NCBI GenBank assembly: GCA_963662275.1
Contig: OY759316.1
Span: forward strand, 3,296,001 to 3,360,000
DNA from: Candidatus Cloacimonadales bacterium
GTDB taxonomy: Bacteria > Cloacimonadota > Cloacimonadia > Cloacimonadales > DAONDQ01
Direction of reading: 5' to 3'
Length of the DNA stretch: 64,000 nt
Shown: piece after piece, positions 39,001 to 48,000 of the stretch
How the letters are laid out: every line of letters begins with the position of its first letter
How positions within the stretch are numbered: position 1 is the first letter of the stretch
Made by a program: the position numbers

Positions 39001-42000
39001 CTATTGAAGAAAACGAAAAGCAAATCCGTGAAGTTTATCAGCGTTCACGTCAATATTGGCTAATTCGTTATTTAGAGAAATACCGCCTTCATGATGTTTT
39101 CCCGGCTATGGTCATCAATATGAATCCCCGCCAGGCTTTTGTAGAAATATTAGAACTCGGGTATCGTGTAGCTCTTCCAGGTAGCCCCTTGTTCAAAATA
39201 GGACAAACTCTCACCATTAAAGTTAGGAAGTTGGATGCCGAGGAAGGAATTATGGCATTTGAAGCGATATCTGTGCAATGAAATAATAAGGAAGGTGATA
39301 TGACACGCAGTTTTGGAAGTGATAATCATTCAGGTATTCATCCCAAAATACTGGAAGCAATCTTCCAGGCAAATATCGGTGTTGAAAGATCATACGGTGA
39401 TGATCCCTATACAGAACAAGCGATAAAGAAGCTGAAACATCTCTTTGGAGAAACAGCAGACATATATTTCGTTTGTAATGGAACTGCAGCTAATGTATTG
39501 TCATTGAATGTACTCTTACACCCGTACGAAGCAATCTTGTGTGCAGAGTCAGCTCACATCCATGTGGATGAATGCGGTGCACCAGAGCACTACATAGGCT
39601 GTCAACTCATTACTATGCCCACTTCTGACGGAAAATTGAAACCTGAGATGATACCTCCTCATTTATCAGAAATTGGGTTTGAACATCATGTTCAGCCGAA
39701 AGTGATTTCCATTTCACAAATATCGGAACTGGGAACAGTTTATTCCATTGAAGAAATTAAAGCTCTCGCTGATTTTGCACATTGTCATGATATGTTGCTG
39801 CATATGGATGGAGCACGTTTTGCAAATGCAGTTGTTTCGATGGGAATGGATGTTCGTACCATGACGGTTGATGCGGGAGTGGATGTCATGACATTTGGCG
39901 GAACGAAGAATGGCATGATGATGGGTGAAGCTGTCATTTTCTTCAATCCGGAGATGTCAAAATCATTTAAATACATACGTAAACAGGGAATGCAACTACT
40001 GTCAAAGATGCGATATGTGTCTGCTCAATTCAGTGCTTATTTGGAAAATGATCTTTGGCTGAAAAATGCCAGTAAGGCAAATAACATGGCAAAGTTATTG
40101 GAAAAAGGTTTGCGAGAATTTGAGATGTGTCATATTCATTATCAAGTCGATGCTAATGCCATCTTCCTCTCATTACCACGTGAGATAGCTTTCAAGTTAC
40201 AGGAAAGATTCTTCTTCTATTTTTGGGATGAAGACCCACTGGAAATCAGACTTATGACTTCATTCATGACCACGGAACAAGATATTGATGCTCTTTTGAA
40301 TTCCCTTCACGAAATATCTGCTTCCAACTGCCATGAATCAAAATAGAATCAGTTACATCTATTGCTTTTGGGCGATCTTCTTCTTCTCCACCATTGAACT
40401 TGTGGGGAAACTGATTGGGAAGGGGATTTCACCGCTCCTAATAACAGCCTATCGTTTCACTATAGGTGGACTTGTGCTTCTGCCATTTGCCGTGTATCAC
40501 TGTAAAAAAAGCAATTTAAAGTTGCATTTTACAGATTATCTCCATATGGCATATCCGGGTGTAATCAATGTGGCAATCAGCATGATGTTCCTACAATTGG
40601 CAGTATATTTTGGAAAAGCATCGATGGCTGGGATACTTGTTTCAACAAATCCACTTTTTGTTGCTATTTTTGCCTATTTGCTTCTCAAGGAAGATTTGGA
40701 TCGATATAAAATTCTAGGAATTGTAGTAGGCTTAGGTGGAATCTTCCTGATTATTATAGGAGAAAAACAACTTCTTTTAGGGGATGCTAATCTTCTCTTG
40801 GGAACGCTGTTTGGTTTGCTTGCGGCACTGACATTCGGCTTCAATGTTGTGCTCTCTAAGAAGTATATCAAAAAATATGGCAACTTCCTGTTTAATACAG
40901 TTGCTTTTTTTAGCGGAGCATTCGTTCTACTCATTGCCGGAATGGTATTGGGAATTGATATTACTTTTTCGTTCAGTTTGAAAAACTGGCTTTATATAAT
41001 ATATCTGGGTCTATTCGTCACAGGATTGGCATATATTCTATTCTTCGAAGGATTAAAGCATATTTCAGCAGCAACAGGTTCTATGTTTTTTTTCCTCAAA
41101 CCAGCACTGGCAAGTATCTTTGCTGTGTTGATTCTTAAGGAACATCTTTCCCCGTCGCAAGTTGTGGGTATTGTGCTGATTATTCTTAGTTTGAATACAG
41201 ACAGGTTGAGAAAAAAGTAAAGATACTTAACGATACTGCTTGTTTCAGTTTTCTAGAGCAAACTTCATATTAGAATTGTATTTCCATCCATATACTTATA
41301 CTAAATGTTCGGAGTGATTCATTTTTCTTCAGATTTTTCTGCAATTCATAACTACTTGTTAATCCACCTTTGATATTCCTGTGAAACTGGTAGGTTGCCC
41401 CTGGTGTAATAGATATCTTCTGTGTACTCAAATTGACTACTGTTTCTCTGCCATAATTGACATTATAATCTTTTTGCCAACTTAAACCGATGCTGGAAGT
41501 CATTTCATTCTTAAATTGAATCTTCTTCTTTGAGAATGGAATATGAATACCTTTTTCAGCGGTGAAGGCATAGGAAAGATTACCTGATACAGATTGTGAA
41601 TTTGTTGTATTCCTAACTTTTGAAGAGGAAGATTGAATCGTTATATCTTCCGACTGGGATAAATTATAGGCAAGATTGGTGGTCATGTTATTCACCCAAT
41701 TGGCAGTCCAGGCAAGAAAAGGCTGCATCGATACTGTGCGAATAGTTTTCTCTGGTCTGTCTGATTCTTTATTACTCAAAGAATAATTGGATGTTAAACG
41801 TGAACTTGTTAGAATCTTTTGAGCGTGAAGATACTTCTGAAATTCACTGAGCGTAAGTGTTACATCAGGAAAAACAACCGTTGTAGATGTTTGACTGGAA
41901 TTCGCATAGCTTTTCTGAATTGACATAGTATATTTAATATCGGAATCAAGATTCGAAGTAAAAGCTATTCCGGAAGAAAGACCATAACTGTTATCGTAAT

Positions 42001-45000: not shown

Positions 45001-48000
45001 TGACTGCCATCACAGTCACTTTATCCTTCTTTTCCTTTTCCGTCAGCGTAGAATCATTATAGACATCTTTTGCATAAACATCATCGGGATTGTACCAGAT
45101 TGTTTTAGCCTTAGCAAGATTGATTTGGGAAGGCTTACTTCCTGGAACCCAAGTCGAACGCATTACACCTAACGGAAATACGTCCAGGATTCCTTCCATA
45201 TCGTCTATGTAAGCTTCCTGTTTCTTCGTATTTGGATCCCCATAGAGATAAGGCAAACTCATCGCAATTTCACCACTTAACAAAATCTTGGAATCAGCAT
45301 TTGTCTTAATCATGGGTAATGCATCAATCATTCTGGTAACAAAAGCTGGTTGAACAGCAAATTGACCATCTACATCTGCCAGGATCAATCGCAGATTTTC
45401 ATTCCCTATCTTAGGATGTTTATCTGTAACAGATTCCGTTCTGTAGATGAATGTTCCCCCAATTTTTGTATTATCACTGATGATATAATCAGCTCTGACA
45501 CCCATTAGGGATTTTTTTTCTACTGCAAAACCACTTTTGAACTCATAATCTATCTCAACTTTATCTTGGGGATTTTTTCCTTTTGGAGTTAAGAATGTTA
45601 CTTCACCTAAATCATAATCCATCACATAATCTATGTTTTCTCGTAATTGTTCTCCATTAACTTTAACATGAACGCTACCTTTTAGAATACCAAACTGATT
45701 CAGAGCAATTCGTTCCCGTGCCACTTTTCCCTTATAATTAATTAGCATATGCGATTGATCTAAGAGAAGATACTCCGGTTCTTTGTTATAGATCAGATCT
45801 CCCAATGGCTCGAAGGGACGTAAAAAAGGAATTCGAATATATCCTTTTGCCAAATCTAAGGAGAGATCACCGTCACCCACAAAGTTATCACCATTCGTAT
45901 CCATATGCAAATAATCATTGTACCTGACTAATCCGTTTGTGACAATCGAATCAGGTACATTATAGTCTCGTTTCATGTTTGATTGAATGGTAAAAATATC
46001 CAGACGAAATCCCTCAGCCTGAACATTACTCTGACCAAGATCATACATATTTCTGACTTCATAATCCCAGGTATTATTTGGATTAGTAGGTTCATTTTCC
46101 TGATTCTTGGATCGAAGTACTCTGACATGAAGTTTGTCTGTGTTGGGGAAAGTTGCTGGTACTGCAACTTCATTGGCTTGAACGTATTTGACTGCTATGG
46201 TAAAATTGGATTCGATGGTTTTATAGAGAATAATGATCCCTTGATTATATGCATAATCAACATCATAATCAACGCCAGGCAATAATTCATCATACATTGG
46301 CGTATAAGTTACCCCTTGTGAATTAGTTACAGGGTCACCTTCAAGAGCATTGTTATCATTATTAGAATTAGCATCATCCATATATACAAATAGTGATTGA
46401 GCTTTTGGCAGCAGATCAGTATTGGCAACTAATGCTCCCCGATAAACCTTAATGGCATTATCAACCCATCCTGGGGGAACATGAGTGGTATCCTGGATAC
46501 TTGGATCTGTATTAATCAAGTCTCCAGCTTGGTATAAAGAATATAGTTCTTTGGGTTTAGCTATATAGTACATTTTGCGATTCACAAAAGATCTACTGGA
46601 AATATCAACTGAATCTGCCTGGGTAGATCCAGTAAAGGTTTTCTTATTCTTCTGTCCTTCTTCCTTACTCAGGATGGTTGTTAGTTCCAGATTACCAATT
46701 TTCATTTTTGATTTCACACCAAACAAACCTTGCGAAGATGCACTATAACTGATATATCTGGAACCACTCAGAGCAAGTGTAATATTTCCCATTTCCACGG
46801 ACTGGACGATTTCATCTTCATCGCCCTTATATTGAACATTGATATTATTTGGATTGAAGAGCTGTTCATCTTGATTCGAATTGTGGGTCAAACTCACAGT
46901 AATCTTATCACCAATGGTACCTTTCAGGCTCAGATTTAGATCCTGTCTCATAACAACATCGAAATTTGAACCTTTCATATTTTCGCCAACAAGATGATTT
47001 TGTGATTTCGTACTTGTCCCTGTAAAAGTTAATTTCTGGCTACCATCCAAACTCAATTTCCCTGCTTTGTTTCCCAAGAATTTGCGAACTGATTTTGGAA
47101 TTGCTATGTTCGGTAAATCAATGGTAATTTCAGGAATGATGCCTGCTGTACTGGAACGATTTGATATGCTGAACATATCCAATACAGTCTTTCGCATTTC
47201 AACATGATAAATTGCAGAACTTAAGTTGTTGAAATATTCATCAAAGGATAAAACCACAGCAGGATATAGCTGTATTTCACCAATTTGAGCAGTCAGCTTT
47301 ACATTTTGATTCTGATAATCTACTTTTTCTGTTGTCTTCGTGCCGAAATCAGTTACCATGTAGGGTGCTGCTTTCCTAAAGTTCAAGCCTTTATCCAACT
47401 TATAGTAGATAATCTTATTATCAACAACCGGAGAATAATCCCCGATATAAAGTAAAGGACTAAATGTCTCAGCAAATGCTAACATCCAGACAAATCCAAT
47501 TGCCAGGATTAGCAGGATTTTTTTATTCATTACGTTCCTGTATTAAAGCGTAGAAAATCATTGCATACAATTATGAGGTAGAATCCAGAGTACAACTTAT
47601 TCGATATAATCCTTCAAGAGTTAAAGTCTTATCGATTACATCAATTTCTCCGCACTCTTGACAAATCAAGGAAGAAATACCACCGGTTGCAATTGCCCTG
47701 ATCTCACCCAGAGAGGCATACTCCTGACGTATTTTCCGTATAAACCCATCCACCATCAGAGAATGACCCGTAACGATACCTGAAAGTAACCCTTCCTTAG
47801 TACTTGTTCCAATCGTTTTCTTCGGTGTCTCCAACTCAATCGAACTGAGCAGAGCTGCTGTATTGAAAAGAGTCGATGCCGATGTCATAACACCAGGTGC
47901 AATTACGGTTCCATAAAATGTTCCATCCTTTCCCACCAACTGGATAGTAGTAGCAGTACCAAAATCACAGATGATACAATTCGTTTGATACTTTTCTTTG

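Follow-up and report, generated by a model that had tools for sequence, protein, structure and literature searches.

A type IX secretion system without detectable GldKLMN in a Candidatus Cloacimonadales genome

Introduction

How does cargo leave a type IX secretion system (T9SS) that appears to have no motor? In the current model (PMC10994853), motor-driven extraction is the sole energy-requiring step of type IX export. Loading in Flavobacterium johnsoniae, where published work has Sec deliver the cargo to the periplasm, is energy-free, the C-terminal sorting domain (CTD) binding PorV inside SprA, and cargo stays trapped in cells lacking the motor or SprE (same source). The window studied here, which is the whole 64-kb stretch of DNA analysed, carries the translocon gene sprA of a Cloacimonadota genome (G000) in which the genome-wide survey's note had detected no GldK, GldL, GldM or GldN, and which it credited with a simpler T9SS using a different energy source. 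If a motor thought essential is missing, cargo must leave some other way.

Results

Translocon, cargo and carrier

The sprA locus comprises:

41270..47530, minus strand: sprA/sov, T9SS outer-membrane translocon, 2,086 aa (TIGR04189 456 bits, cut-off 200)
47571..48362, minus strand: coaX, type III pantothenate kinase, not a T9SS part, conserved upstream neighbour of sprA

The protein is full-length, as the survey had stated: it matches F. johnsoniae SprA in the PDB (6H3I, E 1e-35) and aligns colinearly with 19 other SprAs, with no lineage-wide gap block of more than 25 columns. SprA_N occurs in 56 of 61 Cloacimonadota genomes, free of stops within the matches, in agreement with the earlier count of 26 of 31. 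The gene coaX adjoins sprA in eight of the nine other Cloacimonadota sprA loci read. No conserved T9SS neighbour of sprA was seen among the neighbourhoods of 18 other genomes, read in part; what recurs next to it is coaX within Cloacimonadota and, outside them, lptF/G or porX. In G000 the genes porV, porU and sprE, like the run of Ton genes, lie beyond the window.

Our own CTD profile finds 268 proteins in the genome, with the domain terminal in 267, accounting for 14.7% of bases (the survey had 265 and 14.6%). A signal-like N-terminus is present in 220 of the 267, versus 983 of 3,433 proteins overall. Four cargo genes lie in the window:

2766..5333, minus strand: type A CTD cargo, 855 aa (TIGR04183 45 bits, cut-off 23)
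5838..7466, minus strand: type A CTD cargo, 542 aa (TIGR04183 31 bits)
7708..9288, minus strand: type A CTD cargo, 526 aa (TIGR04183 39 bits)
32873..34180, minus strand: type A CTD cargo, 435 aa (TIGR04183 38 bits)

A recount of PorV/PorP-like barrels again gives 15, eight of them immediately adjoining a CTD gene. The PorV carrier exceeds the family model cut-off (247 over 90) and falls under that of the strict PorV model (158 under 250).

Accessory and attachment parts

The genome also encodes PorU, PorX, Skp, a PorZ-like protein and an SprE/PorW orthologue. The last had been overlooked in the survey; it was detected by fold search alone, where an SprE homologue gave 8GL8 chain I as top match, and single-sequence and profile searches of PDB sequences missed it. 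Skp matches at E 9e-5, its identity as the translocon-bound copy being putative. Besides PorU, the attachment complex may be represented by a PorZ-like full-length match (132 under 260) and a PorQ model match under cut-off. The gene following porV was considered as PorU and rejected, since it encodes an M6-like protein. With a single 126-position model (PF17116), Plug was not found in G000, G053 or G064, and was found in G120 and G111.

SprE-like genes are present in all 58 SprA-positive non-Bacteroidia genomes tested, 41 at E<=1e-20 and the remaining 17 through N-terminal NF052312 matches. In motor-less lineages, though not in G000, a TonB_C or SPOR domain is a frequent C-terminal end of SprE: TonB_C stands at the C-terminal end in 16 of 120 Cloacimonadota homologues and in 12 of the 29 complete non-Bacteroidia C-ends read, and SPOR replaces it in four genomes. 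The SprE of G000 and of G003 carries no TonB_C, like 104 of the 120 homologues, and the domain is absent from SprE in 12 of 12 GldM-positive genomes and in motor-bearing G087. The SprE-fused TonB_C evolves on long branches, which, together with its replacement by SPOR, fits a cell-wall tether.

Search for the motor, the ring and PorG

Profiles were built from 26 sequences each of GldL, GldM and GldN, with reversed decoys and left-out members as controls. In G000 the best E values were 0.012, 0.022 and 0.18, respectively, against 0.026, 0.24 and 2.2 for the decoys, whereas members left out of the profiles reach about 1e-36 or better. The positive control that the survey had named as missing for its Gld models has now been run, and GldM models match 25 of 101 Bacteroidota genomes.

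The survey's further worry, that divergent GldLM could be missed, was partly justified. G087 has a gldLMNK set that has diverged so far that curated models barely register it (36 bits, where the cut-off is 180): its GldL is 17-22% identical to those of Bacteroidia and has no GldL family match, its GldM (380 aa) reaches 38 bits, and its GldN has no family match. Nevertheless, even Bacteroidia-only profiles catch this GldL at E 1e-9, and a GldL profile widened to 37 sequences, including the G087 type, yields nothing above decoy and no credible membrane-domain match in a six-frame search of G000. Across 151 Cloacimonadota genomes there is likewise no credible membrane-domain match. Weak matches occur in 15 of them, the best (E 2.7e-5) in the coiled-coil part, and two weak ones touch the membrane part (E 0.007 with internal stops; E 0.044 over 33 positions).

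A topology scan of G000 for pairs of two-helix and one-helix genes, as in GldL-GldM, gave 12 candidates, none convincing. In a tree restricted to FGE domains with the motif used to cut them out, none of the 26 from G000 and G003 joins the GldK clade, a separation with 100/100 support; this tree covers only part of the family, as G000 alone has 48 FGE matches. PF19573, which we take to be PorG, was not found in G000. Inspection by eye of the 1,052 reciprocal best hits between G000 and G003, covering 81% of the latter, showed no unexplained conserved motor-like membrane pair.

These controlled searches bear out the survey and support a predicted T9SS without GldKLMN. Its "simpler" holds for GldLM, GldKN, PorG and a detectable Plug, but SprE, Skp, PorU, PorZ-like protein and PorX are kept, so the gap lies in the energy chain and the detectable Plug, not in the translocon accessories. 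The pattern had been described for the phylum and other non-Bacteroidota; it stands in Cloacimonadota and in named Ignavibacteria (SprA 3/3, GldM 0/3, GldL 0/3), and extends further, the widened GldL profile finding nothing in 54 of 80 SprA-positive GTDB Bacteroidota.

GWxTD proteins near sprA

Two genes near sprA encode candidates for the missing part:

24875..26230, minus strand: GWxTD protein 1, 451 aa, candidate subunit of the motor-less T9SS (TIGR04514 68 bits)
26223..27344, minus strand: GWxTD protein 2, 373 aa (TIGR04514 99 bits)

The first consists of a signal peptide, two Ig-like domains, a helical linker and the GWxTD domain. Its structure model (pLDDT 94) shows no membrane-spanning part besides the signal peptide and finds only generic Ig folds (best Z 10.1, rmsd 3.0, 105 aligned), with no specific match; the Plug and GldM families, considered as possible homologues, were unlisted in two fold searches, which scarcely covered the C-terminal domain. 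The pair is kept in G003. Of 104 motor-less genomes with SprA, 103 encode GWxTD proteins, compared with 6 of 26 GldM-positive genomes and none of 26 SprA-negative ones; G087 also has them. The family is also known from Acidobacteria without SprA.

One Cloacimonadota genus lacks SprA, and with it CTDs (0 in 3/3 genomes tested), SprE and GWxTD (none in 5/5 each). These genomes are reduced (1.5-1.6 Mb), with many genes lost, and about three lineage-level events underlie the presence/absence profiles.

Two ExbB-type motors

The better of the two motors tested in tracking SprA is the Ton system, whose TonB orthologue occurs in 53 of 56 SprA-positive and 0 of 5 SprA-negative Cloacimonadota. In G000, tonB is found 8 kb upstream of sprE; in G053 and G055, exbB of the Ton set is about 11 kb from sprA. 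A TonB-dependent receptor adjoins tonB in G000, with a barrel and a cargo-like gene alongside the receptor; with this textbook client at hand, the tracking is not independent. No TonB box was identified, and a complex prediction for G000 SprE (21-790) with the TonB C-domain scored 0.00, which counts neither way. Other ExbB-family loci read in G000 lie at contig positions 2291790, 2039575 and 255505.

The second motor lies in the window:

13949..24411, minus strand: Agl-Glt-core-like module (Pfam MotA_ExbB and ExbD)

It encodes a barrel-like protein (324 aa), a TPR protein (673 aa), a 1,286-aa protein, ExbB/TolQ, two ExbD and a GltG-like protein (493 aa) grouping near Myxococcota FHA/TonB_C clusters, and it sits directly downstream of both GWxTD genes, 17 kb from sprA. 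Its ExbB orthologue is present in 45 of 56 SprA-positive Cloacimonadota. It was not found in the other 11, including all five of one family, and the module was therefore rejected as an obligatory energiser. Nor did any of 19 genomes from outside Bacteroidia give a close match (best E 2.5e-29); one of them, G069, has a similar module.

Discussion

G000 shares SprA, SprE, Skp, the PorV family, PorU, a PorZ-like protein, PorX and type A CTDs with the Bacteroidia T9SS of F. johnsoniae and Porphyromonas gingivalis. It differs in having no GldL/M motor, GldK/N ring, PorG or detected Plug, and in carrying GWxTD proteins, which 20 of 26 GldM-positive genomes do not. Judged from these gene contents, the system very probably secretes, and its motor-less form would be the common one outside Bacteroidia.

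The different energy source proposed by the survey is an inference, and a Ton-type motor is a tentative choice for it. Cargo would reach the periplasm by Sec, its CTD would dock on PorV within SprA at no energy cost, and the cargo-carrier complex would be pulled off SprA through SprE, with GWxTD proteins as additional periplasmic subunits of the release step and the ExbB-ExbD-TonB proton motor driving it as a substitute for GldLM and the GldKN ring. Given a secreting system, these three elements of release taken together fall somewhat short of an even chance; the explanation as a whole, a working T9SS with extended translocon and attachment complex, no rotary energy chain and Ton-driven release, is possible and should be held tentatively. 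The Ton system offers a proton motor and a periplasm-spanning transducer that is present in G000 and tracks SprA, and two lineages have a TonB_C fused to their SprE; the known clients of the Ton system, however, are TonB-dependent receptors, and its coupling to the T9SS in G000 is hypothetical. Counted in favour were the joint loss of SprA, CTDs, SprE and GWxTD in one genus, the SprE-like genes in all SprA-positive non-Bacteroidia tested, the distribution of GWxTD proteins and the placing of tonB near sprE in G000 and of exbB near sprA in G053 and G055. Counted against were the missing membrane anchor by which TonB_C on an outer-membrane lipoprotein could take up force, the lack of TonB_C in most SprE homologues, including that of G000, the textbook client of TonB, the reduced state of the SprA-negative genomes, the few lineage events, the GWxTD model without a membrane span and the GWxTD proteins of motor-bearing G087.

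Secretion may instead need no motor, a reading we consider possible though doubtful: the complex would diffuse off SprA, with PorU cleavage and anchoring and exchange between numerous cargo-specific barrels making the process one-way. SprE tails (TonB_C, SPOR) would then do no more than tie the translocon to the wall, consistent with their interchange, and GWxTD would be a chaperone, a release factor or a stand-in for Plug, undetected in three genomes. Energy-free loading, the presence of PorU, the barrels beside their own cargo genes and the absence of a visible motor-like pair fit such a ratchet, but F. johnsoniae cargo is trapped without motor or SprE, every motor-less genome tested retains SprE, and the G003 comparison, limited to 81%, relies on BLAST, which would miss parts as divergent as the GldLM of G087.

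That drift is also what would speak for a hidden GldLM motor and ring, diverged beyond detection, or for an unrelated new motor. We regard this as improbable, given that Bacteroidia-only profiles still recover the G087 GldL and that the widened profile, the topology scan, the FGE tree and the PorG search gave nothing credible. Release powered by the Agl-Glt-like module is still less probable. The module resembles the Myxococcus core (aglRQS, gltD, E, G, C), for which PMC3169522 gives no function outside gliding, in its ExbB/TolQ, two ExbD, GltG-like and TPR proteins and adjoins the GWxTD genes; but the likeness is one of domains, and its ExbB orthologue was not found in a fifth of the SprA-positive Cloacimonadota. 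A relic translocon, with CTD proteins not exported through SprA, is very unlikely, as the SprA matches in 56 of 61 genomes are stop-free, 220 proteins with terminal CTDs have signal-like starts, CTDs are gone from the three SprA-negative genomes tested, and mature Fibrobacter surface enzymes are reported without CTD peptides (PMC6851124).

The motor-less pattern has been mentioned in passing for two Ignavibacteria: PMC11705866 gives Melioribacter and Ignavibacterium SprA, PorV and Plug only, with no other T9SS protein. G000 likewise has SprA and PorV and no Gld motor, but lacks a detectable Plug, and SprE-like and PorZ genes were found here in named Ignavibacteria, at variance with that account. 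Full-text literature searches, covering main texts, gave no systematic account of motor-less T9SSs, SprE-TonB_C fusions or GWxTD proteins, the last returning two unrelated matches. For Rhodothermus, Salinibacter or Ignavibacteria, the occurrence of SprA or CTDs in the absence of gldKLMN may already have been described, reportedly by McBride and Zhu (2013) and Kulkarni (2017).

Both the current model of extraction and the proposal that the T9SS evolved from gliding machinery (PMC12635249) are challenged by a T9SS that is apparently in heavy use yet lacks motor, ring and PorG throughout a phylum and in the majority of the non-Bacteroidia Bacteroidota sampled. It is conceivable, if rather unlikely, that translocon and attachment complex predate the Gld motor and worked with GWxTD proteins and a Ton-type motor, a form persisting in Cloacimonadota and most non-Bacteroidia Bacteroidota, and that Bacteroidia swapped in GldLM/GldKN and largely lost GWxTD. 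If true, the published gliding-origin order would be reversed and TonB would be a driver of protein export. For GWxTD, a family without described function, the link to a motor-less T9SS offers a first functional hypothesis. Screens requiring gldKLMN undercount T9SSs, T9SS cargo may take up about 15% of the G000 genome, and the question becomes testable in cultured motor-less species.

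Translocon, cargo and other T9SS components

Window 41270-47530, minus strand: sprA, 2,086 aa (TIGR04189 456 bits, cut-off 200)

The genome of Candidatus Cloacimonadales bacterium (G000) is a single contig of 4.38 Mb with 99.97% completeness; the closest named relatives of its proteins belong to Cloacimonadota. Its SprA matches that of F. johnsoniae and aligns colinearly with 19 other SprAs, which bears out the full-length translocon described in the genome-wide survey's note. The note had also counted 265 CTD cargo proteins (14.6% of all bases) and 15 barrels, 8 directly beside a cargo gene; our iterated profile gives 268 CTD proteins, 267 of them terminal (14.7% of bases), and the same numbers of PorV/PorP-like barrels. 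A signal-like N-terminus, judged by a crude rule, occurs in 220 CTD proteins, compared with 983 of the 3,433 called proteins overall. The other components lie outside the window:

Contig 549273-553157: PorU, 582 bits over a cut-off of 420
Contig 2052890-2053951: PorV, followed by an M6-like CTD protein
Contig 74223: PorX, over cut-off
Contig 3145712: Skp, under cut-off
Contig 1154012: PorE-like protein, under cut-off
Contig 3050572: PorZ-like protein, aligned across the full model, 132 bits, under the cut-off of 260
Contig 4348749-4351448: SprE candidate lipoprotein, SprE model 24 bits only

The predicted structure of a homologue of the SprE candidate combines TPRs with a long helical finger, and Foldseek ranks SprE of the extended translocon (8GL8 chain I; E 9e-10) as its best match. 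The PorG and Plug models found nothing in G000 and matched the control genomes.

Two gene runs pair cargo with barrels. At contig 1132504-1155859, a 6,828-aa CTD protein precedes a PorV-family barrel of its own, and a PorE-like OmpA protein comes next. At contig 253167-260272, a CTD gene and a barrel come first, then an ExbB-family protein of 588 aa that ends in a coiled coil and, with it, two small membrane proteins; copies of the genes flanking this second run occur about 24 kb away. Elsewhere, a 388-kb record labelled plasmid (L031, NZ_OY725768.1) carries sprA amid housekeeping genes and is probably a chromosome piece.

No motor detected

The positive control that the note lacked for its Gld models has now been run: GldM is over cut-off in 2/2 named Bacteroidia and in 25 of 101 Bacteroidota genomes, 80 of which have SprA. 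The worry that divergent GldLM might escape the models proved justified in genome G087, whose weak GldM match (36 bits) belongs to a genuine gldL-gldM-gldN operon of strongly diverged sequence, with a barrel-GldK fusion after it; curated models can therefore nearly miss a motor. This locus (L144:8829-13661) encodes GldL of 241 aa, a short GldM of 380 aa, a GldN-like protein of 309 aa without family match, and the 660-aa fusion, its barrel-like domain judged by eye. One source names the G087 GldL as a Cyclonatronum protein; it has 41 relatives, which show no Pfam domain. The genome classes 'Bacteroidia', 'non-Bacteroidia' and 'Balneolales-like' are inferred from this naming, GldM and scores.

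A 37-sequence GldL profile spanning Bacteroidia-type and G087-type proteins detects GldL in the 25 GldM-positive genomes and G087, and in none of the other 54 SprA-positive genomes of that sample. Across 151 Cloacimonadota it finds no GldL; 15 genomes give weak matches (best E 2.7e-5), almost all of which fall in the coiled-coil part. On G000 its scores do not rise above the decoys, six-frame translation included, and the same holds for the GldM and GldN profiles. In a tree of FGE domains with the cutting motif, those without it being excluded, the 26 domains of G000 and genome G003 fall outside the GldK clade and the G087 domain inside (support 100/100). The reported lack of GldL, GldM, GldN and GldK thus holds, and beyond the phylum the SprA-plus, GldM-minus pattern is borne out in the three named Ignavibacteria, all with SprA and none with GldM. 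As far as profiles and trees can tell, the missing motor is real and no artefact of weak models. As to the order of events, the G087 motor could equally mean that an early motor was lost several times within Bacteroidota. G000 has 48 FGE-sulfatase matches genome-wide, and one 3,325-aa protein carries about ten copies.

GWxTD proteins

Among the few families tested, the strongest phyletic profile is that of the GWxTD family (TIGR04514); the genomes are related and non-independent, and such a profile need not be rare. Two members lie in the window, 14 kb from sprA. At thresholds of 1e-5 and 1e-10, GWxTD occurs in all 50 SprA-positive Cloacimonadota tested (of 56), in 53/54 motor-less Bacteroidota, 3/3 named Ignavibacteria and G087, in 0/5 and 0/21 SprA-negative genomes, and, with weaker scores, in 6/26 GldM-positive genomes. 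Coordinates compared by hand place a match within about 3.5 kb of the sprE start, on the opposite strand, in 14 Balneolales-like genomes, a single lineage; no such proximity is seen in G000. In the predicted structure (pLDDT 94, from 118 sequences), two Ig-like domains precede a C-terminal helical/beta domain, and fold matches are generic only. GWxTD is not a motor but a candidate T9SS subunit. The family also occurs in Acidobacteria, a group not known to have SprA.

Possible energy sources

Published T9SS work has cargo exported by Sec and its CTD bound to PorV in SprA without energy input. For F. johnsoniae, loading is described as energy-free and release as requiring the motor and SprE (PMC10994853), and PMC12635249 has force transmitted via PorG disulfide-linked to GldK; the G087 barrel-GldK fusion, if real, could substitute for this link. 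In the motor-less system, release would run through SprE, with GWxTD proteins involved and a Ton-type motor supplying the energy, a reading that we favour only tentatively. G000 has five ExbB-family genes, one of them upstream of sprE:

Contig 4335169-4344759: TonB-dependent receptor, ExbB, ExbD, ExbD, TonB, 1,034-aa protein, PorV-family barrel

The gene order is identical in genome G053. An orthologue of this TonB occurs in 53/56 SprA-positive Cloacimonadota (the three misses are fragmented assemblies) versus 0/5 SprA-negative ones; its own TonB-dependent receptor adjoins, so that its tracking with SprA is not independent.

SprE itself ends in TonB_C in 16/120 Cloacimonadota homologues. Among 29 complete non-Bacteroidia C-ends, picked by availability and thus non-random, 12 carry a TonB_C-like domain, of which 3 exceed the Pfam cut-off and 9 are divergent, whereas 4 end in SPOR (3 by Pfam) and 13 in neither; the SPOR ends, in four genomes (L371, L372, L378 and L381), occupy the site of TonB_C in others. 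A profile of the fused TonB_C domains matched the SprE frame of the positive control and no SprE frame in 12 GldM-positive genomes, G087 and three further motor-less genomes. The Cloacimonadota domains cluster with TonBs of the same phylum, apart from those of the other lineage (support 96/89), which fits two separate fusions in a tree that lacks the other lineage's free TonBs. The G000 SprE has no TonB_C or SPOR-type tail, and these tails may be wall tethers rather than force couplers. Exported TonB_C proteins without the TonB membrane anchor stand alone at contig 198032-198493 and 3406746-3407399; one, a likely lipoprotein, has CTD genes on one side and a parB-like gene on the other.

A motor-free ratchet releasing cargo is almost as likely as the Ton-type reading. 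When the 1,052 orthologue pairs shared with 81% of G003 were inspected by eye for membrane and exported proteins, no other motor-like candidate emerged. A hidden or new motor is improbable: G087 makes it conceivable, but the GldL profile that detects G087 is empty in G000. We consider it still less probable that the Agl-Glt-like module at window 13949-24411 powers release, since it is found in only 45/56 SprA-positive relatives and tracks SprA less well than TonB near sprE. The module is kept in most Cloacimonadota. In G003, its two TPR genes appear as a single 1,949-aa gene adjoined by a 99-aa gene. G000 carries a further set, more degenerate than the first, at contig 2039140-2043701.

Joint loss of SprA, SprE and cargo

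One Cloacimonadota genus with complete genomes of 1.5-1.6 Mb (G002, G005, G008, G017, G022) lacks SprA in 5/5 and is a natural negative control: SprE and GWxTD are each found in 0/5, and CTDs are absent from the three genomes tested, versus 128 in G053. SprE-like genes occur in 58/58 SprA-positive non-Bacteroidia genomes tested, 41 recognised at E<=1e-20 and 17 from N-terminal NF052312 matches, and in 0/6 SprA-negative ones. Because of this joint loss, which concerns reduced genomes and counts as one event, together with intact genes and the cargo load, the motor-less T9SS very probably secretes; for the same reasons, a relic that no longer exports is very unlikely in G000.

Other conserved gene runs

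Window 48618-52975 holds two GDSL genes and an MBOAT gene, whose closest relatives are from two Cloacimonadota, then Bacteroidota, which suggests a transferred O-acylation cluster. Three further conserved runs, at contig 4304703-4321139, 2628639-2634171 and 3279532-3285724, were identified by eye from N-terminal sequences as type IV pilus-like, GldA/F/G-like ABC and Bat-like genes.

Relation to published work

A 2024 paper states that Cloacimonadota, like other FCB phyla, may have T9SSs (PMC11285876), PMC5837995 doubts their restriction to Bacteroidetes, and PMC11705866 reports for Melioribacter and Ignavibacterium no T9SS proteins besides SprA, PorV and Plug; the bare SprA-without-motor pattern is therefore partly known. 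Unlike the set noted there, G000 also has PorU and SprE, and Plug was not found. The searched parts of PMC8542988, PMC11205867, PMC12204202, PMC5167729 and bioRxiv 2022.01.28.478170 contain nothing on a missing motor, and the literature text searched gives no account of the pattern's breadth, SprE/PorU retention, the SprE tails, the GWxTD profile or the divergent G087 motor. The system is best described as a variant form of the established T9SS, and its energy question is testable.
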